The translations under genes were made by a program, and so were the position numbers. Below are positions 40,873 to 51,863 of a stretch of DNA of 64,000 nucleotides, piece after piece. Position 1 is the stretch's first letter. Each line of letters opens with the position of its first letter. A model generated the notes under the pieces. It did no database searches, had not been told where the DNA came from, and was given only the letters and a program-made list of their open reading frames with translations. The stretch covers positions 444,667 through 508,666 of the forward strand of contig OZ246402.1 of assembly GCA_965230975.1 (NCBI GenBank). Reading direction: 5' to 3'. This DNA comes from an uncultured Candidatus Saccharibacteria bacterium (GTDB lineage Bacteria > Patescibacteriota > Dojkabacteria > J137).

Positions 40873-41032
40873 AAGTAGTGAATATATTTATAAGAGCACA
40901 AAACTTTTTAGTTTAGCATATTTTTTTATTTCTCCAAAAATTGAAATTTTTTCTAATAAAAACAGTCTATAGGGTGTTACCAATTTTTAAGAACGAGTTA
41001 AAATACTGGCATTACTTCAGCATAATAATTTT

Positions 41033-41383
41033 ATGAGTGATAATTCCCGAAATATGGGCGTACCCTCAACTTTACGTGAACACTTTACACCAGAAATGGA
41101 TTGCATAGTTCCTATGGCAAATTGTACTTTTGATTCTATTTCCGGTTTACCACTAACTTTGGGTAATTTAAAGGTGCACCAAGATGAGTGGGGTAATTTA
41201 ATGGTATTTAAAGATAATAACTGGCATTTAATCTCTGTACTTACACCTGGAATTTCATATATTATTAGTGATTCAGTAGTAAATTTCTATGAATTAGGAA
41301 GACTTGGCAACCCTGAGATTTATCAATGTAATTTTGTACCAGACGAAGTTAAGGCAAAAAGAAAACCACAATCTGAAGCATAA
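41033..41383 (+). CDS. Hypothetical protein
   Basis: 116-aa ORF. Confidence 0.4.
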   Translation: MSDNSRNMGVPSTLREHFTPEMDCIVPMANCTFDSISGLPLTLGNLKVHQDEWGNLMVFKDNNWHLISVLTPGISYIISDSVVNFYELGRLGNPEIYQCNFVPDEVKAKRKPQSEA

Positions 41384-41409
41384 TTACATTTATTACGTTA
41401 ATATTTTAT

Positions 41410-41712
41410 ATGAAGAATAGATTTAAAGACAGAACTCGTCTTGCAACTGCCGATGAAGAAGAATATGTTGAACAACCAGTCAAACACATTTCGAATAAGA
41501 AAAAACTTAGAAATTTAGGATTAGGCGGAATTTGGTCAGCGATACGAGCAGAAGATGGCAATATATGGGTAAACTACTATGGAGAACCTTGTATTGTTGA
41601 ACAAAATCCTGTTTACATGATAACTCCACTCGGACAGCCACCAGTGCCTATAGAAATCCATTTCACGCTAGTTGATGATGAACCGTGGGGATTTGGACCT
41701 ATAGAACTCTAA
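41410..41712 (+). CDS. Hypothetical protein
   Basis: 100-aa ORF. Confidence 0.4.
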   Translation: MKNRFKDRTRLATADEEEYVEQPVKHISNKKKLRNLGLGGIWSAIRAEDGNIWVNYYGEPCIVEQNPVYMITPLGQPPVPIEIHFTLVDDEPWGFGPIEL

Positions 41713-42386
41713 TCACAAATTTTGCCGTTCTCAAACTTTATTTTTCTTGTGGCAATCTCTTGAATTCTTTGATCGTGGCTAACAATTACAACACTTTTAC
41801 CCTGTTCAAAAGCAATCTCTTTTAATAAATTCATAACCTCTTCACCATTTCCCGAATCTAAATTAGCTGTAGGTTCATCTGCAAGAATAATTTCTGGGTT
41901 GTTAATCAATGCCCTGGCAATAGCAACTCTTTGTTTCTCTCCTCCACTTAAATTCTTTGGTAAATGATTAATTCTTTTATCAAGTTTTAATCTTTTTAAA
42001 ATAGACCTTGCTTCTTGTTCTGCGTCAGCTTTGGAAATACCTTTAATAAGTAAAGGTGTAATTACATTCTCTAAAACATTTAAAGATGAAAACAAATTGA
42101 AAGATTGAAAAATAAAGCCAACATTGTTTAATCTGTAATAAGTAAGTTGGTTCTCACTTAGCTTTGCAATATTCTTTCCCTCAAAATCTATAGTCCCAAA
42201 TGAAGGTCTTAATAAGCCACCCAACATACTAATTAAGGTTGTTTTACCACTGCCAGATGGGCCAATAATCAACAAAATTTCTTCTTTGTAAACTTCCAAA
42301 GATACATTATCAACTGCTTTAACCAAGGTATGCCCTTTCCCAAAAGTCTTTTTTAAATTTTTTGCAGTTAATACAGTTTGCTTCAT
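41709..42386 (-). CDS. ABC transporter ATP-binding protein (MacB/LolD-type)
   Basis: Walker A GPSGSGKTT, signature LSGGEKQRVAIARA, Walker B ILADEPTANLD. Confidence 0.9.
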   Translation of the reverse strand: MKQTVLTAKNLKKTFGKGHTLVKAVDNVSLEVYKEEILLIIGPSGSGKTTLISMLGGLLRPSFGTIDFEGKNIAKLSENQLTYYRLNNVGFIFQSFNLFSSLNVLENVITPLLIKGISKADAEQEARSILKRLKLDKRINHLPKNLSGGEKQRVAIARALINNPEIILADEPTANLDSGNGEEVMNLLKEIAFEQGKSVVIVSHDQRIQEIATRKIKFENGKICD

Positions 42387-42388
42387 AT

Positions 42389-43498
42389 TTAAGATTTAAA
42401 AACCACAGCTGGGTCAATGTTTGCAATCCGTTTTGCAGGAATCAAAACACTTAATGCGCTCATAAATAAAGATGTCGCAATAATGAATATTAAAATATTT
42501 GCATCAATTTTTACTTCTAGAAACGGAATGGATATTTTCAAAATCTCTCTGACAATAAAAGAACATAGTATCCCAAAGAAAATTCCAAATGCAGAAAACA
42601 TAAGGGATTGTTGCAGTAGCAATTTGTAAAACTTAAAGTTATTCATTCCAATAGCTTTTAAAACTCCAAATTCTGTTTGTTTATCTAGTGTTGCGGTATA
42701 GATTGTTAATCCAATAATTGCTGTGCCAACTAAAAATCCAATAACTACAATTGCCATAACAATTGGTAAAAAGGTTTCTTCTAAAACATTTAAATTTAAA
42801 TTAATAAATTCTGATTTTTTAATTACATTTATGTTAGAACTTAGTTTTTCAATCTCAGCCATAGCAACATCCACATCTGATTTATCACTTATACTAATAA
42901 ATAGATAGTTTGTAATATTAGGAACTTTAATTAACTCTTTGCCTTTAGATTTAGTGATAAACCCGTAGTAAGCATTAATAAAACTAGATCTTTCGATAGT
43001 TCCGGCTATAGTAAAGTCTGTATCGTAAATTTGGATAGTATCATTTAGTTTTAGATTATTCTTTTTTAAAAAATCTTCTCCAAGAATTATTTGGTTATCT
43101 GTAATTTTTAAGGTTCCACTAACTAAATCCCATGGCTTTCCAATTTGAGAATCGTCCTCGTAAGTTGTTAGTGTTAGTACACTTCTAACTCCATGCTTTT
43201 CAAAAGAGGCTTTAATTTGAATAATGCCGGCAACCTCTTCTACACCTTTTATATTTTTTATCTTCTCTTGGATATTATCTTGAATTATTGATGTTCCAAT
43301 GAACATATCTTTAACACCTTCTTGGGTTACAACCAAATCTGCAGGTGTTTTTTGTACATATCTTACAAATTGGTCTGACATACCAAAGTAAATCCCAAGC
43401 AATGTGACCATTAGCATTATGGAAAAAGAAACACCAGCTATGCTAATTACAAATTTTAACTTCTCTTGAAAAAGGTTCTTTCTTGCAAGCAAAAACAT
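42389..43498 (-). CDS. ABC transporter permease, FtsX/MacB-like (four TM with large periplasmic domain)
   Basis: One TM, ~200-aa periplasmic domain, three C-terminal TM. Cotranscribed with the ATPase. Confidence 0.85.
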   Translation of the reverse strand: MFLLARKNLFQEKLKFVISIAGVSFSIMLMVTLLGIYFGMSDQFVRYVQKTPADLVVTQEGVKDMFIGTSIIQDNIQEKIKNIKGVEEVAGIIQIKASFEKHGVRSVLTLTTYEDDSQIGKPWDLVSGTLKITDNQIILGEDFLKKNNLKLNDTIQIYDTDFTIAGTIERSSFINAYYGFITKSKGKELIKVPNITNYLFISISDKSDVDVAMAEIEKLSSNINVIKKSEFINLNLNVLEETFLPIVMAIVVIGFLVGTAIIGLTIYTATLDKQTEFGVLKAIGMNNFKFYKLLLQQSLMFSAFGIFFGILCSFIVREILKISIPFLEVKIDANILIFIIATSLFMSALSVLIPAKRIANIDPAVVFKS

Positions 43499-43573
43499 AT
43501 TTTTAAGTTGAATATCTTATTCTCCTATATTTCTAAAAGGGTAGCAATTAAAAATTTAGCCTAGAATAGATAC

Positions 43574-43602
43574 AAAAAGGGCCGACTTTCGTCGGCCCTT
43601 TT
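43574..43602. terminator. Rho-independent terminator (bidirectional), functional for the minus-strand gene 43617-44558
   Basis: AAAAA-GGGCCGAC-TTTC-GTCGGCCC-TTTT. Confidence 0.8.
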
Positions 43603-43616
43603 AAATGAAAATTCCT

Positions 43617-45052: not shown

Positions 45053-46123
45053 TTATAAATCCCTTTTAATCATATAATCTGCAATGCCTTCTAAAAAAGC
45101 TCTGCCTTCTGGTTTCCAGTGAATGTGGTTTGTTGCAAGGCAACTTTCTGCAGATTTTACATAATTTAATGCTTTTTCTTTGCAGTAATCTAATGCCCCG
45201 CATTCTCTGATTATTTTTCTTGCCTCTTCTAGCTCTGTTTTTGTTATGTTTGGATTTCCTAGCAATTCTAAAAACCTCTTTTTAGTTTTGCCATGAGTCA
45301 TTTTGATAGTTCTTACAGTTAGTAAGTTTTGCTTACCTTCTTTTAAATCTGAATCCTCTGGTTTGCCTAGTTTTTCAGCATCACCAAACATTCCTAAAAT
45401 ATCGTCCTGTATTTGATACGCTATTCCAGCAGGTATTGCATATTCAGAAAGGGCTTTTAAGTCTTTTTCACTAGCACCTGCTAAAATTGCTCCAACGTAA
45501 AGTGGATTTTCGTAAGTGTACTTGGCTGTTTTTAATAAATTAATTTGAATTGCTTCGTATTCAGTAACTGTATCTTTTACCTCTGCTAAAACATCTAAAG
45601 CTTCTCCATAACCTGTGTATGCTAATCCTAAATTGAATTCACTCATAGCTTTAACAATTCTATCTGAATCCAAGCCGGAGTGGAGTAGTATATTTTCGGC
45701 AATATGGTTTAAAATTATACCTGCGCAAATTGCCATAGATTCCCCAAAGTGTCTACTATCTTTCTTTTTAAAGTGTTTAGCGTGGTAGTCCTGATAAATC
45801 TTGTGCACAGTTTCTTTTTTGTGTCTAATGTCATCTTGGTCAATAATATCATCCATAATCAGTATATAGATGTGTATTAGTTCTACAAATGCAGATGCTT
45901 TTAAAATTTTATCTTTTTCTGTCCCACCAAACATTAAGTAGCTATAGTAGGTAAGTGCTCCCCTAAGTCTTTTCCCGCCATGGGCTAGTGGAATAATATT
46001 TTGTACCATCTCTTTAATGAAGGGGGAGACATGTTTGGAGTGCTTAAACTCGTACTGTAGGTTTTCTTCAACAATTTTGTCTATTATTGGCGCCAATTCT
46101 GCTAAAGCTTTTTTTGCTTCCAT
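45053..46123 (-). CDS. Short-chain (E)-polyprenyl diphosphate synthase (FPP/GGPP synthase type)
   Basis: First aspartate-rich motif LIMDDIIDQDD, second IQDDILG. An aromatic Tyr 5 residues before the first motif suggests a short-chain C15-C20 product. Confidence 0.85.
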   Translation of the reverse strand: MEAKKALAELAPIIDKIVEENLQYEFKHSKHVSPFIKEMVQNIIPLAHGGKRLRGALTYYSYLMFGGTEKDKILKASAFVELIHIYILIMDDIIDQDDIRHKKETVHKIYQDYHAKHFKKKDSRHFGESMAICAGIILNHIAENILLHSGLDSDRIVKAMSEFNLGLAYTGYGEALDVLAEVKDTVTEYEAIQINLLKTAKYTYENPLYVGAILAGASEKDLKALSEYAIPAGIAYQIQDDILGMFGDAEKLGKPEDSDLKEGKQNLLTVRTIKMTHGKTKKRFLELLGNPNITKTELEEARKIIRECGALDYCKEKALNYVKSAESCLATNHIHWKPEGRAFLEGIADYMIKRDL

Positions 46124-46284
46124 ATTGACTTGCTGCTATCAATATACATTCAGTTGTTAAATAAAATAATTTACCAAATATAATTGACAACACGACTGTC
46201 GTAAATTTTAACATTTGCGAATGCATAAGTCTAGCGGTTTTATCCGCTTTTTAAATATCATTTAGTCTGTCAAGCCTGACAAGA

Positions 46285-46551
46285 TTAAATTTGCCATTTT
46301 ACAATCAAGGTGTAGTTTTTTAGGTAGTTATCTAGTTCGGTGTTTGCACAATAAAATCTAAATGGCAGAGCATTTGTAGGGTATTTTTTTATTGTGTAAT
46401 AATCCAGTTTGATTTGTTGAGTAATATTTTGTGAAATTAAATTTTCAGGTGCTTTTTTAATTATCCAATTTAAATACTGGTTAATATTGCTATATGTTTT
46501 GCCTTTTCTGTAGTCTTTGAGTTGATTTTGGTTTGTATAGTATATGTACAT
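46285..46551 (-). CDS. Hypothetical small protein (doubtful)
   Basis: 88-aa Tyr/Asn-rich ORF in a 580-bp spacer. Confidence 0.25.
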   Translation of the reverse strand: MYIYYTNQNQLKDYRKGKTYSNINQYLNWIIKKAPENLISQNITQQIKLDYYTIKKYPTNALPFRFYCANTELDNYLKNYTLIVKWQI

Positions 46552-46632
46552 TTCGTTTTGTTTAAATATGGTTTGATTTTAAAAAATGAAGAGTTTTTTG
46601 TCTTTGTATTCAAAAACAATGTGTTTTACGCC

Positions 46633-46659
46633 TAAATTTGCGTTATGGCACAATGTGAC
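46633..46659 (+). promoter_or_regulatory. Recurrent motif TAAATTTGCGTTatgGCACAATG upstream of the APH-like gene
   Basis: 21 of 27 nt identical to the site at 47621-47647. ATTTGCG cores are also present at 46214-46220 and 48484-48490. Confidence 0.4.
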
Positions 46660-46702
46660 TTCTTTTTAATTTTGATACAATTCGTAATTAATATTAAAAC
46701 CA

Positions 46703-47623
46703 ATGTGCAATCTTGAATTTCAGATACATTTAATTACGCATTTAGAATCTTTGCTTGGGCAAAGTATTGTTGATAGTTCAACTCCACCTCAAGGTATGGG
46801 TAGTCACGTCTTTTTTGTAAAGACTGAGACTGGTAAGGAGTATGCAGTCAAGTACGGTGTAGATGCTGGTAAAGATGTTCCTGCTTTAAAGCTTATAAAA
46901 GATAAAGATTTAAAAATCCCGGTACCAAACTTAATTGCTTATTTTGAGTTTGATTCTGTGCCAGTTGTTATTCTGGAAAAGATCGATTTCCCATTATTAG
47001 AAAAGGTTCCTGTAGAAAGGTTATCTGAATATATTCCGTCAATGGTTAATTGCTTAAGAAGTTTGCATGAATTGAAGAGTCCAAAGCCTGGGCGAGTTGC
47101 AGAACAGAATTTTAGTATAAGCTGGAAGTCAATGATTAAATCAATTTTTGATGGTTCTCAATTTGATTGGAAAGAAGTTTCAGAAAGGAGTGGAGTAGAT
47201 GGAATCTTAATATTAAAGTCAGTAGAAAATATCTTAGCCAAGATTGAAAGTATTAATTTGCCAGATAATAATTTTTCACTTTTGCATACAGATTTTAATC
47301 AAAGAAATTTATTTGTAGATTTAAGTAGTAATAAAATAACCGGGGTGATTGATTGGGAAGATGCAATGTATGGAGACCCGATTTTTGATTTTGCCAGAGT
47401 TAGAATGTTTATTTGGCATTTTGGTTTATCTGAAAATGTTGTGAAAGATTATTATGATTTAATGGATTACACTTCTGATGAAAGGGCTAGGGAGGATTTT
47501 TATTGGTTGGTTAGGGTTATTCAATATTTAGCATGGTATTCAGAAGATTTAAACGAGTTTTCAATTTCACGAATTAAACTTCATCAAGAGTTTTTAAGAG
47601 ATTATAATTGGGATAACTTTTAA
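46703..47623 (+). CDS. Aminoglycoside-phosphotransferase-fold small-molecule kinase (APH/choline-kinase-like)
   Basis: Catalytic loop LLHTDFNQRNLFVD (HxDxxxxN) and the metal-binding motif VIDWEDAMYGDPIFD. Confidence 0.7.
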   Translation: MCNLEFQIHLITHLESLLGQSIVDSSTPPQGMGSHVFFVKTETGKEYAVKYGVDAGKDVPALKLIKDKDLKIPVPNLIAYFEFDSVPVVILEKIDFPLLEKVPVERLSEYIPSMVNCLRSLHELKSPKPGRVAEQNFSISWKSMIKSIFDGSQFDWKEVSERSGVDGILILKSVENILAKIESINLPDNNFSLLHTDFNQRNLFVDLSSNKITGVIDWEDAMYGDPIFDFARVRMFIWHFGLSENVVKDYYDLMDYTSDERAREDFYWLVRVIQYLAWYSEDLNEFSISRIKLHQEFLRDYNWDNF

Positions 47624-47647
47624 ATTTGCGTTGCGACACAATGCAAG
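47621..47647 (+). promoter_or_regulatory. Second copy of the TAAATTTGCGTTgcgACACAATG motif upstream of the XRE-GAF regulator gene
   Basis: See the site at 46633-46659. Confidence 0.4.
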
Positions 47648-47718
47648 TCCTTGTATTTCTTGCTAATATCTTCAAGTCATATTTGTCAACAACTGTTGGA
47701 ATAAGTTAAAATCCTTAA

Positions 47719-48480
47719 TTGAAAATTTGTATGGATAATTCAAAAACCACATTGGGTCAAAAGATTCGAAAGTATAGGTTGCGATCTGGCAAGAGTCAGC
47801 TTGAGCTGGAACTTGAAACGGGTCTATCTACTGGGACTATTAGTAGAATTGAGAATGATAGTATTAATCCAACTAAAGAGACACTGGGTAAATTAATAGA
47901 GGTTTTGAATCTAAGTGGTATTGAGTCTGCAAACCTATTTGATATTGAGTTACCAGCTGTACCAAGATTAATTTCCCTAACTAATGATATTAATAATGCA
48001 ACAGATTTAAAGAAAATACTTCAAATTTCTGTGGATGAAATCGCTAAAGATTTAAACTTACATGGTGCACTGATAGCTTTAAAAGATGGGGACTTGTTAA
48101 AAGCAATGACTGTTACAAATTCATGGTTTGCTATATTAATGACTAATTTAATAGGTAAATCTGTGAATGAACTGTGTTTAGTTATAAGTAATACTCCTCA
48201 AAATTTGTTTGTTAAAGCAATGGAAACACATAAGTCATATACCAGTAATGATCTTTATGACTTTAGTGCTGGTACATTTCCTAAATCTTTGACTCCCATT
48301 GTGCAAAAAGCTACTAAACACGGTTCTGGTATTGTTTTCCCATTGCTAGACGGCGATGTATCTATCGGTGGTATTATGTTTACAAAAAGTTATTTTGATA
48401 ATTTTGATTATGAATTTGAAATATTAGAGGCATTTGCAGAAGCTGTTTCTAAAGCAATTGTTAAAGTAAGGAGTTTGTGA
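47719..48480 (+). CDS. XRE-family HTH transcriptional regulator with a C-terminal GAF-like sensor domain
   Basis: HTH_XRE (LGQKIRKYRLRSGKSQLELELETGLSTGTISRIEN) plus a ~150-aa GAF-like C-terminus. Confidence 0.75.
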   Translation: MKICMDNSKTTLGQKIRKYRLRSGKSQLELELETGLSTGTISRIENDSINPTKETLGKLIEVLNLSGIESANLFDIELPAVPRLISLTNDINNATDLKKILQISVDEIAKDLNLHGALIALKDGDLLKAMTVTNSWFAILMTNLIGKSVNELCLVISNTPQNLFVKAMETHKSYTSNDLYDFSAGTFPKSLTPIVQKATKHGSGIVFPLLDGDVSIGGIMFTKSYFDNFDYEFEILEAFAEAVSKAIVKVRSL

Positions 48481-48687
48481 GTAATTTGCGAGAAATATAC
48501 ATAAGAATTAGGGCATCAATTGCTAAATCAAAAAATTGCTGAGATACTTATACAAAGATTTGTATAGCTTAAAACTTAATTTATTAGACTTAAGGAATAA
48601 TGGTAATAAAATTTATACTAAACCAATTATAATCTTAAACATAGAATAACTCTTATATATTACTTATTTAATATAACTATTTCTGAT

Positions 48688-49794
48688 TTGAGTTTTGAAA
48701 GTTTAATAAATTTATCAATTGAACTTTCAAAGAAGTACTCAATGCCAATACAAAAAGCCGACTTAGATGCTATGGTAGTTAGTGACTGGAAATTTCTATT
48801 AAAAAGTTTCCCCAGATTCATTACTTTCTATCTAGAAATGAACAAAAATCTTAAAGACTTATCTATAGACAGTAATAGAAATGAATATCTATTTGGATGG
48901 ATGTTTTATGCAACTAAGGCAACATCTTTATTTTCAATTCAATACCATAAAGAATTATTTGAAATAGATGGTGTTAAAGTAAATATAGCGGAGGCAAGTA
49001 GTTATGTTAAATCGATAAGTTTAATATTAGATATTTTAGTAGATGATATTGGTGATAAGTATCAGGGAATTAATTCAATCCTAATTTTAGATTGCATAAA
49101 AAATATAATAAAACAGCAATCTCAAAAAAACATTCAAGTTTTAAATGCTAAAGAAGTGTCATATATTAATTTTTTTGAGAAAGTTTATAATTATTTACTA
49201 AGTTTAATTAGTTTCAATAACGACAAAGACTTGATTTTGATACTTACTCAATCTTATCTAGATTTAATCGATGCTTGCAAATTAAGTCATCAAATAAATT
49301 ATTCGATCAATAACAACGATTACGCTCAAGCCAAGAAATATTCAGATAGAGCATTTAAAACAAAATCTTTAGATAATAAAATGCATGTAAAAATAAATAC
49401 TGTAATAGATTTATTTTTTGTAAAGAAAACTTTTACCCTAGATAAAGATATTTCCAGATTTTCGAAAGTTGCATTTTATCTTCAGAGGGTTTCAAGACTA
49501 TCAAATGATTTAAGCACTTGGGAAAGAGAAGTCTGGTCAAATGATTTTACAAGTACAATAGCAAGATTATTAATTTTCAAATATGGAGTTAGAAATTTTT
49601 CTCAAGAGATTGATGAAAAATTGTACTTGAAAGTTAAAGAGGATTTTTCTAAAACATACAAAACTAACCTTAAAAATTTGATAAACTTAAAAAGTACTTT
49701 TTATAAAGAATATCCTTGGTTTAATTTTGATGAGTTAATTGAACGTTATATAGCAGGCTTAGTCTTACATATCCAAGCAATAGGTAAAATATAG
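48688..49794 (+). CDS. Class I terpene synthase-like protein (terpenoid cyclase fold) - candidate
   Basis: DDxxD at 119-123 (LVDDIGD). NSE/DTE triad at 273-281 (NDLSTWERE, fits (N/D)Dxx(S/T)xxxE). RY pair at 353-354 (ERYIAG). Spacings of 154 aa and 80 aa match those in bacterial sesquiterpene and diterpene synthases. Size of 368 aa. Polyprenyl diphosphate synthase lies 2.5 kb upstream. Confidence 0.6.
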   Translation: MSFESLINLSIELSKKYSMPIQKADLDAMVVSDWKFLLKSFPRFITFYLEMNKNLKDLSIDSNRNEYLFGWMFYATKATSLFSIQYHKELFEIDGVKVNIAEASSYVKSISLILDILVDDIGDKYQGINSILILDCIKNIIKQQSQKNIQVLNAKEVSYINFFEKVYNYLLSLISFNNDKDLILILTQSYLDLIDACKLSHQINYSINNNDYAQAKKYSDRAFKTKSLDNKMHVKINTVIDLFFVKKTFTLDKDISRFSKVAFYLQRVSRLSNDLSTWEREVWSNDFTSTIARLLIFKYGVRNFSQEIDEKLYLKVKEDFSKTYKTNLKNLINLKSTFYKEYPWFNFDELIERYIAGLVLHIQAIGKI

Positions 49795-49796
49795 AT

Positions 49797-51863
49797 ATGT
49801 TTATACAAAATATAATTCAAAAAATAATGTATCCGAATTCTCACACGGATTACTTCAAGGTAAGAGCCACTAATCCCTCCGGTTACCAAACCTCTCGAGA
49901 GAAAAGATATCAAACAATACAAAATATTACCAAGCTGTTAGTTGCAACTTTAGAGTTTGAAGTTATATCGCAAAGAGTTGTGGACATTATGGTTGAGCAG
50001 ATGGATTACTTGGGAGGTATATTATTCATCCCAGATAAGAATACTCAAAAACTTATTCCATGGACTACATCTGATTCGCCTGTAGTTAATCAAATATTGA
50101 AGATTCTCCCCAAAAAATTAAGAGAATATAATCAAAGCTATGAAGATGTGAGTACCAATAATCTAGTAGCTAAGACCTTCATAGAGAAAAAAGTATATCA
50201 GTCAAGTTATTATCCTGAGTTTATTTCCCCAGCAGTGCCTGAGTCTCAAGCTAAACTTATACAAAAACTTACAGGTACTAAGGAAAGTATTTCCTATCCT
50301 ATTATTTATAAAGATACAGTTTTGGGGGTGGCTCTATTTGTATCGAATAAGGAAACTTTATCGGAAGAAGAGAAGGAAATGTTGCAGACATTTACAGAGT
50401 TAGTAGGAGTCACTTTAAACACTGCAAAGCTATTTGAAGAGATTAATAATCAAATCTTTCAGTTAACAAAAAAAAACGAAGACTTATCTTCTTTATACAA
50501 CCTGACTGCTAATGTATCTCGTTCTTTGGACCCTTTTAAAGTAGCTCAAGCTGCAGTTAATTCCATTCCTCAAGATAAGATGCTGGTTGGGTCAGTGCTA
50601 ACCAGATATTACCCGGACAAAAACTACGTAGCACCATTAGTAACAAGTGAAAACCAACTATCTTACGCAGTAAGAAAATTAATTGGTGACTTTACACAAT
50701 ACGGACTAAAACTAGATGACCCAGAAGCACAAGTAAACCTGGTTGTAAGAGTCGTAAAAACAGAAACACCAATGTTTACAAACAACATATCTGAATTCTT
50801 TGTACCCGCACTAGGATCTCAATTCTTAGACCCAATAGCAAAAATCATAAACATAAAATGCGTAGCAACATACCCATTAATAATACGTGGAAGAACAATC
50901 GGAGCACTATCATTCATGATAAAAGAAAAAAACGCAGAAGAGATAGATGCAAACGAAAAACAATTACTACAAACATACACAAACCAAATCGCAATCGCAT
51001 TAGAAAATGCTAATCTATTTGCACAATCACAAGAAATACAAGCCAAACTAGAAAAAACACTAAAAGAACTAGAGGCAGCAAGAAAACACGAAAGAGACAT
51101 GATAGACATAATGGGTCACGAACTAAGAACCCCAATGTCTATAGTCAGAAACGCACTAATAATGATGGATACACAAATCAAAGCTAACCCTGCAGACCTA
51201 ATGGACAAAATAAAAAGATATGTGGATATAGGGGTAGAATCTGCTAGACGAGAAGTATCTTTAATAGAAACATTATTATCTGCAACAAAAACAGATGGTA
51301 AAGGATTTCAACTATTACTTGAAAAAGTAGATTTAAACGACATAATAAACAACTCCCTAATAGCATTTAAAAGAGAGGCAGAAAGAAAAGGTTTGACACT
51401 AACATTCGAACCACCGCAAACACCAGTGCTTGTTTATGCAGATAAAACTAGAATTCAGGAAATAGCAGACAACTTTATTAATAACGCAATTAAATACACC
51501 ATGAGGGGTAACATAAATATAAAAGTTTGGGACCAAGAAGGATATGGTTATGTATCAGTTAAAGATAGCGGAATTGGAATATCTGAAGAGGATCTAAAAA
51601 AATTAGGACAAAAATTCTTTAGAGCAAGACAATATATAGATGATGTAGATCCAAATACTTTATCACCAGAAAAACTAGAAGTTGTAAGACCAGGTGGAAC
51701 CGGATTGGGATTATTCGTGACATTTAACTTAATAAAAATAATGGATGGAAAGTTAGATGTTCAAAGTAAAGTTAAAGAAGGTAGTACTTTCACTTTTGCA
51801 ATGCCAATATTTTCTGGTCAGCAAACTAAGCAAATTGAACGAAAAGTTGAACCATCAGAGTAG
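49797..51863 (+). CDS. Cytoplasmic sensor histidine kinase with tandem GAF domains
   Basis: Two GAF-like regions, a coiled coil, the H-box MGHELRTPM, HATPase N, G1 (VKDSGIGI) and G2 (GGTGLGL). Start codon 3 nt after the upstream stop. Confidence 0.85.
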   Translation: MFIQNIIQKIMYPNSHTDYFKVRATNPSGYQTSREKRYQTIQNITKLLVATLEFEVISQRVVDIMVEQMDYLGGILFIPDKNTQKLIPWTTSDSPVVNQILKILPKKLREYNQSYEDVSTNNLVAKTFIEKKVYQSSYYPEFISPAVPESQAKLIQKLTGTKESISYPIIYKDTVLGVALFVSNKETLSEEEKEMLQTFTELVGVTLNTAKLFEEINNQIFQLTKKNEDLSSLYNLTANVSRSLDPFKVAQAAVNSIPQDKMLVGSVLTRYYPDKNYVAPLVTSENQLSYAVRKLIGDFTQYGLKLDDPEAQVNLVVRVVKTETPMFTNNISEFFVPALGSQFLDPIAKIINIKCVATYPLIIRGRTIGALSFMIKEKNAEEIDANEKQLLQTYTNQIAIALENANLFAQSQEIQAKLEKTLKELEAARKHERDMIDIMGHELRTPMSIVRNALIMMDTQIKANPADLMDKIKRYVDIGVESARREVSLIETLLSATKTDGKGFQLLLEKVDLNDIINNSLIAFKREAERKGLTLTFEPPQTPVLVYADKTRIQEIADNFINNAIKYTMRGNINIKVWDQEGYGYVSVKDSGIGISEEDLKKLGQKFFRARQYIDDVDPNTLSPEKLEVVRPGGTGLGLFVTFNLIKIMDGKLDVQSKVKEGSTFTFAMPIFSGQQTKQIERKVEPSE

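Follow-up and report, generated by a model that had tools for sequence, protein, structure and literature searches.

The locus described here lies within 64,000 nucleotides of contig OZ246402.1 (assembly GCA_965230975.1, positions 444,667 to 508,666), a stretch from an uncultured Candidatus Saccharibacteria bacterium (GTDB: Dojkabacteria) that will be called the window. By one of its proteins, at 68% identity, the window is probably of a Dojkabacteria-like lineage. It encodes a polyprenyl synthase and an 88-amino-acid open reading frame (ORF) on the minus strand, followed on the plus strand by an APH-family kinase, a regulator that joins an XRE-type helix-turn-helix (HTH) to a GAF fold (XRE-GAF), a terpene-synthase-like gene and a GAF-GAF histidine kinase (Table 1). 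The first-pass annotation had labelled the genes of this locus in the same way and the labels were borne out, that of the terpene-synthase-like gene being a weak one supported by synteny. It had also pointed to four intergenic copies of the heptamer ATTTGCG on the plus strand (sites 1 to 4), taken as the core of an operator or promoter element common to four genes. All four copies exist, site 1 lying one base away from the position first given. Two of them (sites 2 and 3), together with one copy that had gone unreported, are real operators in this terpene-gene locus. The functional unit is not the heptamer but the 16-bp dyad TTGYRT-N4-AYRCAA, which keeps a constant distance to a -10 hexamer; what stands of the proposed regulon is a cis-regulatory element common to the locus promoters at sites 2 and 3, and the four-site version does not.

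Table 1. Features of the locus (window coordinates) and the corresponding dyads of orthologous loci, which are numbered with the prefix L
Feature	Position	Strand	Sequence or remark
Polyprenyl synthase	45053-46123	-	
Site 1 (ATTTGCG)	46213-46219	+	outside the element; in the spacer of the polyprenyl synthase minus-strand promoter
88-amino-acid ORF	46285-46551	-	downstream of O_L; called in L001-L005, L008 and L010
Operator O_L	46604-46619	-	TTGTATTCAAAAACAA, 1 mismatch; weaker copy, 34 bp upstream of O_R; overlooked earlier
Operator O_R (site 2)	46634-46655	+	AAAT-TTGCGTTATGGCACAA-TG; dyad 46638-46653, TTGCGT-TATG-GCACAA; upstream of the APH-like kinase
ATTTGCG of site 2	46636-46642	+	intergenic
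Extended -10, kinase promoter	46673-46681	+	TGATACAAT (TGA TACAAT); consensus match, 21 nt before the kinase ATG
APH-family kinase	46703-47623	+	downstream of O_R; Pfam APH, 70.9 bits
XRE-GAF operator (site 3)	47622-47643	+	AAAT-TTGCGTTGCGACACAA-TG; dyad 47626-47641, TTGCGT-TGCG-ACACAA; upstream of the XRE-GAF gene
ATTTGCG of site 3	47624-47630	+	intergenic
Extended -10, operator-linked XRE-GAF promoter	47661-47669	+	TGCTAATAT (TGC TAATAT); consensus match
Second canonical promoter-like block	47683-47712	+	TTGTCA-N18-TAAAAT; after the operator promoter and before the XRE-GAF start codon
XRE-GAF regulator	47731-48480	+	249 amino acids; N-terminal HTH_3, C-terminal GAF fold; candidate binder
Site 4 (ATTTGCG)	48484-48490	+	lone half-site TTGCGA, unsupported; upstream of the terpene-synthase-like gene
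Terpene-synthase-like gene			follows the XRE-GAF gene
GAF-GAF histidine kinase	49797-51863	+	
L005 dyad			TTGCGTCGCAACGCAA, perfect half-site dyad TTGCGT/ACGCAA; orthologous to O_R
L009 dyad			TTGTGTTGCAACACAA, TTGTGT/ACACAA, perfect 16-bp palindrome; orthologous to the XRE-GAF operator
L012 and L010 dyads			same as in the window; O_R unchanged in L010
L007 dyad			TTGTATTGTAATACAA, TTGTAT/ATACAA; before the gene heading the regulator operon

Sites 2 and 3 are identical at 21 of 27 nucleotides, a count that had been given correctly before, and their extended match (TAAATTTGCGTTnnGnCACAATG, 20 specified positions) occurs twice in the window against 0.01 expected, far beyond chance. Both are imperfect palindromes with AAAT on the 5′ side and TG on the 3′ side, and the dyad of site 3 begins only 3 nt past the stop codon of the kinase gene. 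The third copy, O_L, reads on the minus strand, where a TAAAAT hexamer (46581-46576) is found at the canonical offset and points to the 88-amino-acid ORF. Since O_L and O_R each have a -10 of their own, the intergenic region would thus consist of two back-to-back operator-promoter units. Within the window, good dyads are confined to these three. A second palindrome (47631-47646, TTGCGACACAATGCAA) overlaps the XRE-GAF operator with an offset of 5 bp. Many consensus sites read TTGCAATACAATGCAA, and where CAATGCAA recurs, two dyads interleave with an offset of half a helical turn, an arrangement seen also in L009, L021, L028 and L051-L056. A Bacteroidetes-type -7 box (TAnnTTTG), which TAAATTTG in sites 2 and 3 had brought to mind, was discarded: 133 copies were counted against 114 expected, scattered in coding sequence and untied to gene starts.

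At both sites 17 nt separate the TG that flanks the dyad from an extended -10 element (TGnTAnnAT), which places the -10 hexamer 22 nt after the end of the dyad. These elements conform to the sigma-70 extended -10 pattern TGnTAnnnT at a plausible distance, as judged by consensus match only, and no -35-like hexamer is present at the dyad position of either site. Transcription would be predicted to start at about 46688 for the kinase and at about 47676 for the XRE-GAF gene. From the 22-nt gap, and with a start assumed 7 nt after the hexamer, the centre of the dyad comes to lie at about -42.5. A fixed 22-nt gap between dyad and TAnnnT with the centre at this position, measured from the predicted start, would correspond to the geometry of an activator-dependent class II promoter.

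The dyads recur where the gene order recurs. Homologues of the regulator were followed to contigs with common synteny, in which a polyprenyl synthase and a small ORF on the minus strand are followed on the plus strand by one to four XRE-GAF paralogues, a terpene/prenyl enzyme and a GAF kinase. In these orthologous loci the dyad is maintained upstream of the first regulator gene while its flanks diverge, and this combination of retained dyad symmetry with diverged flanks is found in the window, L005, L007, L009, L010 and L012. The two halves vary symmetrically between loci (C..G, T..A). L005 even has tandem dyads, at 1557 and 1591, with the 34-bp spacing of the window and the -10 at an offset of +1. 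The invariant columns of the alignment (A1) read AAA.TTG..T...CAATG-17-TG.TA..A. Downstream of the operator promoter, the TTGTCA-N18-TAAAAT block is common to L005, L009 and L012, partly including the spacer, though the proteins are only 38-59% identical. With its unusually conserved spacer (TGTTGGAATAAGT), the block might serve as a basal promoter, as part of a leader or as a further binding site.

To look beyond these loci, the pattern AAAYTTGYRT-N5-YRCAATG-N17-TGNTA was scanned in 185,579 species with one genome per species. It gave 33 matches, where our estimate on uniform base composition predicts about nine by chance, and nearly all of them come from metagenome-assembled genomes (MAGs) of the Candidate Phyla Radiation (CPR) labelled Saccharibacteria, Dojkabacteria or Doudnabacteria. 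The genome of the window itself is not among the matches and evidently lies outside the collection. Despite the degenerate pattern the matches converge on AAATTTGTATTGCAATACAATG, the core of which is a perfect palindrome, and in the CPR match loci the -10 hexamer is present in one orientation only at 30 of 39 sites. As the scan pattern imposed the -10, unforced dyads were checked separately: among the 23 unforced perfect palindromes in all fetched loci, TAnnnT follows exactly 22 nt after the dyad in 11 and 21 nt after it in four, other offsets being found at a background of about one to four each. Most ORFs downstream of motif matches begin within 60 nt of the pattern end. These genes are mutually unrelated, and encode NUDIX hydrolases, class II ribonucleotide reductase (RNR), M48 peptidase, a SIS-domain protein and a pyridoxal phosphate (PLP) decarboxylase as well as four-helix-bundle, coiled-coil and surface proteins; one 1.1-Mb Saccharibacteria MAG alone has at least eight strict matches on three contigs. 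The motif class is thus not confined to the locus of the window: in its consensus form it stands before many unrelated genes, in more than one CPR lineage.

Some of these copies deserve a separate comment. A mobile element, for example a miniature inverted-repeat transposable element (MITE), was considered and rejected: the flanks are not conserved between copies, except for the promoters of paralogous four-helix-bundle genes in one MAG. In the Saccharibacteria MAG CAZSKK01, L017, L025 (two copies), L041 and L045 carry a near-identical operator-promoter cassette of ~50 nt, ...CAATGcggcc(a/c)aaagtaatttTGGTAGACTTAC, and behind it lie genes for, among others, 23S-rRNA-IVP four-helix-bundle proteins and for a NUDIX hydrolase. 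L016, L018 and L028, from MAGs labelled Nitrospirae and Neomarinimicrobiota, are short contigs with the CPR consensus motif and near-identical flanks, L028 also having an XRE-GAF gene of CPR type. Probably these contigs come from the CPR and were mis-binned, or else they represent a mobile segment that is shared.

The protein most closely connected with the motif is the XRE-GAF regulator. Its residues 16-66 belong to HTH_3 (Pfam PF01381; 48.1 bits against a cut-off of 23), and sequence matches in the PDB are to HipB-type HTH domains only. The C-terminal part scores 26.7 bits with Pfam GAF_2, just under the cut-off of 28.6. In the AlphaFold model (pLDDT 89) the C-terminal ~180 residues are predicted to adopt a GAF fold, with Foldseek matches to the solved GAF domains 3ci6, 3oov and 5w10 (TMt 0.69-0.78, probability 1.00). 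No curated family spanning the whole regulator was found in the NCBIfam and PDB searches. While a word-index search gave 16 relatives, the full HMMER scan returned 524 representatives at E <= 1e-30. More than 100 full-length proteins of ~250 amino acids are among the best HMMER matches, along with multi-GAF and giant proteins; because some of the matches, the latter included, come through GAF domains only, the XRE-GAF family is smaller than 524. Members of the XRE family are often found in tandem, two to five paralogues of about 255-280 amino acids in a row, with a nearly identical HTH and divergent C-terminal domains (L074 2583-6787, L080 1571-5220, and also L007, L008, L009 and L026).

The association of motif and regulator holds in both directions. 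Loci fetched by the DNA pattern alone are enriched for homologues of the window's HTH (E 1e-17 to 1e-101), usually adjoining the motif. L024 and L028 encode full XRE-GAF proteins, L026 has three tandem paralogues with a motif copy in front, L031 has two tandem paralogues and one HTH-only gene, each beside a motif, and L015 and L027 contain HTH-only genes. Conversely, starting from the protein, 79 metagenome loci provided 61 non-redundant upstream regions of XRE arrays. A perfect TTGYRY-N4-RYRCAA dyad is present in 16 of these 61 regions as opposed to none of 58 coding control windows, and 11 of the 16 are independent of the loci that had defined the motif. The dyads lie 60-230 nt, in most cases 60-160 nt, before the XRE start codon. 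The early suggestion that the XRE-GAF protein is the binder is backed by this two-way comparative association. There may also be a trace of specificity in the protein itself. The recognition-helix region G-S/T-I/L-S-R-I-E is nearly invariant in the XRE family, and 'GT(I/L)SRIE' at the start of the helix goes with four of six CG-type operators (half-site positions 4-5) versus none of ten TA/TG-type operators, a comparison made by eye on phylogenetically non-independent cases. A link between CG in the half-site and 'GT' in the recognition helix is accordingly to be regarded as possible.

The dyad symmetry, its conservation among orthologues, the fixed spacing to the -10, the two-way association with XRE genes and the HTH-GAF architecture are the observations on which our interpretation is built. 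We think it likely that sites 2 and 3 and the copy at 46604-46619 are operators of a dimeric XRE (HTH_3) factor, in the first place the adjacent XRE-GAF protein, and that sites 1 and 4 stand outside the element.

Several points weigh against this interpretation. About 70% of the XRE arrays are without a good dyad within 260 nt upstream, and no recognisable dyad was found in the syntenic loci L006 and L008. The scan pattern imposed both flanks and -10, which biases the set of matches obtained with it, and the search for dyads in the organism's own genome covered the 64 kb of the window. The position of the dyad near -42 depends on predicted -10 elements, and the overlap of the dyad with the -35 position would be compatible with repression. 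Finally, the consensus motif is also present in genomes whose XRE homologues lack GAF or were unseen within 8 kb. Because it occurs without a nearby XRE-GAF gene, the binder may be another paralogue or a lineage-wide regulator.

In the mechanism that we infer, the binding paralogue is the adjacent XRE-GAF protein, the sign of regulation is positive and the ligand is a small molecule taken up by the GAF domain. An XRE-GAF dimer would bind the three dyads and regulate the 88-amino-acid ORF, the kinase gene and its own gene in response to this ligand. Bound at -42 it would touch RNA polymerase, which amounts to class II-type activation with positive autoregulation, while the canonical promoter at 47683-47712 would supply the basal regulator. 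The terpene-synthase-like and GAF histidine-kinase genes could possibly also be controlled, if they are co-transcribed with the regulator gene. The same operators and a binder of the same family could instead serve a repressor, with Cro/cI-like autorepression by occlusion of the -35 position and relief by the GAF ligand. Most characterised small XRE proteins are indeed repressors, and the extended -10 of many target promoters could fire without an activator. We nonetheless regard this as possible rather than likely and, given binding, lean towards activation, because the spacing between dyad and -10 is held within 1 bp across lineages, as is typical of activators while repressor sites usually vary, because the target promoters have CAATGn where a -35-like hexamer would be expected, and because a second canonical XRE-GAF promoter is retained downstream, beyond the reach of a dyad-bound repressor.

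A wider and more speculative reading, which we consider doubtful, extends activation by the XRE-GAF protein to the surrounding genes and makes of the locus a terpenoid signalling module. The polyprenyl synthase and a terpene cyclase would produce a diffusible terpenoid, the XRE-GAF protein and the adjacent histidine kinase would sense this product through their GAF domains, and the activator would then switch on the -42 dyad promoters, including its own. If this were true, several CPR lineages would have in the XRE family and its dyad their principal one-component regulatory system.

It seems rather improbable that a CPR-wide global regulator other than the neighbouring XRE-GAF protein occupies the dyads, with the kinase and XRE-GAF genes as ordinary members of its large regulon. 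The occurrence of the consensus before functionally unrelated genes, with its repeated strict matches in a single Saccharibacteria MAG, would fit such a regulator, but the XRE HTH is the only factor that recurs beside the motif, in an association that holds both ways. The motif resembles the LexA/SOS box CTGTAT-N4-ATACAG, but neither the motif loci nor the window yielded a LexA homologue, and the downstream genes are not SOS-like apart from RNR and NUDIX. A tblastn search with E. coli CRP found no homologue in the motif loci, and the NrdR and parS boxes were rejected on sequence and orientation. Furthermore, the XRE-linked sites in the clade of the window have a consistent symmetric variant, with G at half-site position 5 and C at the mirror position, which suggests a paralogue-specific operator.

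Quite unlikely is the original proposal that all four ATTTGCG sites are functional, with half-sites at 46213 and 48484 that join the polyprenyl synthase and the terpene-synthase-like gene to the regulon. Four same-strand intergenic copies within 2.3 kb were reproduced in none of 200 Markov simulations, and TAATTTGCG is found both at site 4 and in the 5′ flank of the genuine operators. Over the whole window, the heptamer is not over-represented (8 copies versus 4.96 expected, a number reached by 14 of 100 shuffles), and because 44 other heptamers with at least three G/C are clustered to an equal degree in the actual window, the cluster taken alone says little. Neither site 1 nor site 4 has a second half-site at N4 spacing, and they have only the heptamer in common. 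CATAAG follows both, as had been noticed, but out of register, 4 nt after GCG in one case and 9 nt in the other. Site 1 falls between the elements of the polyprenyl synthase promoter, which consists on the minus strand of TAGACT (46233-46228), 17 nt and TGt TAAAAT (46210-46205). In L005, whose synthase is 90% identical, the -35 and extended -10 blocks are kept while ATTTGCG has become ATTTTTC, with loss of the GCG, and CATAAG has become GTTAAG. For site 4 there is no orthologous intergenic region to compare, as the XRE-GAF genes of related loci abut the next gene. Sites 1 and 4 look like chance resemblances to the operators, site 4 being possibly a weak half-site.

The surroundings of these two sites contain other repeats. 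The sequence ATACAAAGATTTGTAT at 48550-48565, 60 nt downstream of site 4, combines the consensus-type half-sites ATACAA and TTGTAT in everted and not in inverted order. The gap between the 88-amino-acid ORF and the polyprenyl synthase gene includes two features, at 46233-46248 and 46268-46281: a terminator-like hairpin on the plus strand, AGCGGTTTTATCCGCT followed by TTTTTAAAT, with no plus-strand gene upstream, and a conserved inverted repeat, TGTCA-AGCC-TGACA, which is partly kept in L005.

That the palindromes act as RNA, for instance by terminating transcription behind the kinase gene (intrinsic terminator, 47624-47648) or by forming a leader hairpin, is hardly credible. A terminator scan flagged 47624-47648 (10 pairs followed by CCTTGTATTT, minimum free energy -9.8 kcal/mol), but site 3 was the only site flagged, and the five orthologous sites fold no better than shuffles (z = 0.40, -1.53, 0.17, -1.35 and 0.12). 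The upstream gene in L005 and L009 is on the opposite strand and leaves no transcript to terminate. With the start where it is predicted, the element would precede it and would not be transcribed from its own promoter, and it matches no Rfam family, the Rfam 15 scan of the whole window having returned three tRNAs only. Since folding equals that of shuffles, and since L005 and L009 have no upstream gene on the same strand, a function at the DNA level is favoured.

Part of the locus differs between two strains. At the DNA level, identity between the window and L010 is 96-98% over 45053-47892 and 92.8% over 50462-51088; between these near-identical sides, window 47892-50462 and L010 5417-9622 are unrelated. 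Three pieces make up the variable block, namely the regulator's GAF domain (from residue 54 or so onwards), the terpene-synthase-like gene and GAF1, the first of the two GAF domains in the histidine kinase. Identity between the two strains is 98% for kinase GAF2, as compared with 21% for kinase GAF1 and 28% for the regulator GAF, and in place of the terpene-synthase-like gene L010 has a squalene-cyclase/prenyltransferase-like gene. The ends of the block are at or near domain boundaries, one of them around residue 54 of the regulator and the other exactly where GAF1 and GAF2 of the kinase join. In sequence the difference looks like the swap of a sensor-plus-synthase cassette and in this respect resembles the pherotype cassettes of peptide quorum sensing. 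Under the terpenoid reading, this complete difference in one cassette between two strains that are otherwise 96-98% identical would suggest strain-specific signals. Both GAF domains of the histidine kinase match the GAF profile of the regulator family (E 8e-49), from which it would appear that kinase and regulator use related sensor modules. The small ORF downstream of O_L has no Pfam or NCBIfam match. Further upstream, about 2.6 kb of the window (41013-43610) are absent from the near-identical L010; this segment includes FtsX/MacB-type ABC transporter genes (41709-43498).

To our knowledge almost nothing is known about transcriptional regulation in the CPR (Patescibacteria), where very few regulators are recognisable. 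The present analysis provides a testable cis-element, AAAT-TTGTATTGCAATACAA-TG located 22 nt upstream of a -10 hexamer, and a candidate cognate family, with an XRE HTH alone or fused to GAF or another sensor and often present as two to five tandem paralogues. It also provides a set of target genes from the sampled Saccharibacteria, Dojkabacteria and Doudnabacteria MAGs. In the window the motif ties together the 88-amino-acid ORF, the kinase and the XRE-GAF gene, leaving aside the polyprenyl synthase and the terpene-synthase-like gene, and the analysis directs attention to a circuit that would sense a ligand in the setting of prenyl and terpene enzymes. There is nothing out of the ordinary in the combination of an XRE regulator and a palindromic operator as such; it is the lineage, the breadth of occurrence and the strict promoter geometry that are useful. 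The searchable literature yielded no description of the motif or of the XRE family, although one may have been published, and the CPR-wide pair of regulator and operator is thus apparently undescribed so far.

Among the known systems closest to this one are the repressors of lambda (cI) and phage 434 at OR2-PRM. These HTH_3 proteins bind as dimers to a dyad of 14-17 bp, with an operator at about -42 of their own promoter, tandem operators, autoregulation and activation through contact with RNA polymerase. The locus described here has the HTH_3 domain, a dyad predicted near -42 and the tandem operators, and we propose for it the binding as a dimer, the autoregulation and the polymerase contact. 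It differs in that the C-terminal domain is a GAF sensor and not a cI-type oligomerisation/cleavage domain, the genes are chromosomal and not those of a prophage, the operator sequence is unrelated and there is no divergent lytic promoter logic. CRP and FNR at class II promoters offer a second parallel, with a 16-bp dyad of 5-N6-5 form (TGTGA-N6-TCACA, compared with TTGTA-N6-TACAA here), a centre near -41.5/-42.5 that replaces the -35, a one-component protein combining sensor and HTH, and many unrelated targets per genome. The proteins themselves are different: tblastn with E. coli CRP revealed no sequence homology, and an N-terminal XRE HTH with a GAF domain stands here against a C-terminal winged helix with a cyclic-nucleotide (cNMP)-binding beta-barrel.

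By domain content the XRE-GAF regulator is also comparable to the RNPP/Rgg/PlcR proteins, in which an N-terminal HTH_3 precedes a C-terminal ligand domain in about 250-290 amino acids. The likeness extends to a palindromic box of 16 bp that closely precedes the -10 (TATGNAN4TNCATA for PlcR), to autoregulation, which we propose here, and to tandem paralogues near signal-making genes. Here, however, the sensor is GAF and not TPR, no small peptide gene was identified, and the candidate signal genes encode prenyl/terpene enzymes. PrpR/RamB-type regulators of Actinobacteria likewise fuse an XRE HTH to a GAF-like ligand-binding domain. The PDB and NCBIfam searches gave no match of this type above threshold, and the present protein differs from them in size, lineage and operators, which are unrelated. 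In family terms, the system can be placed no more narrowly than in the broad XRE/HTH_3 and GAF superfamilies.

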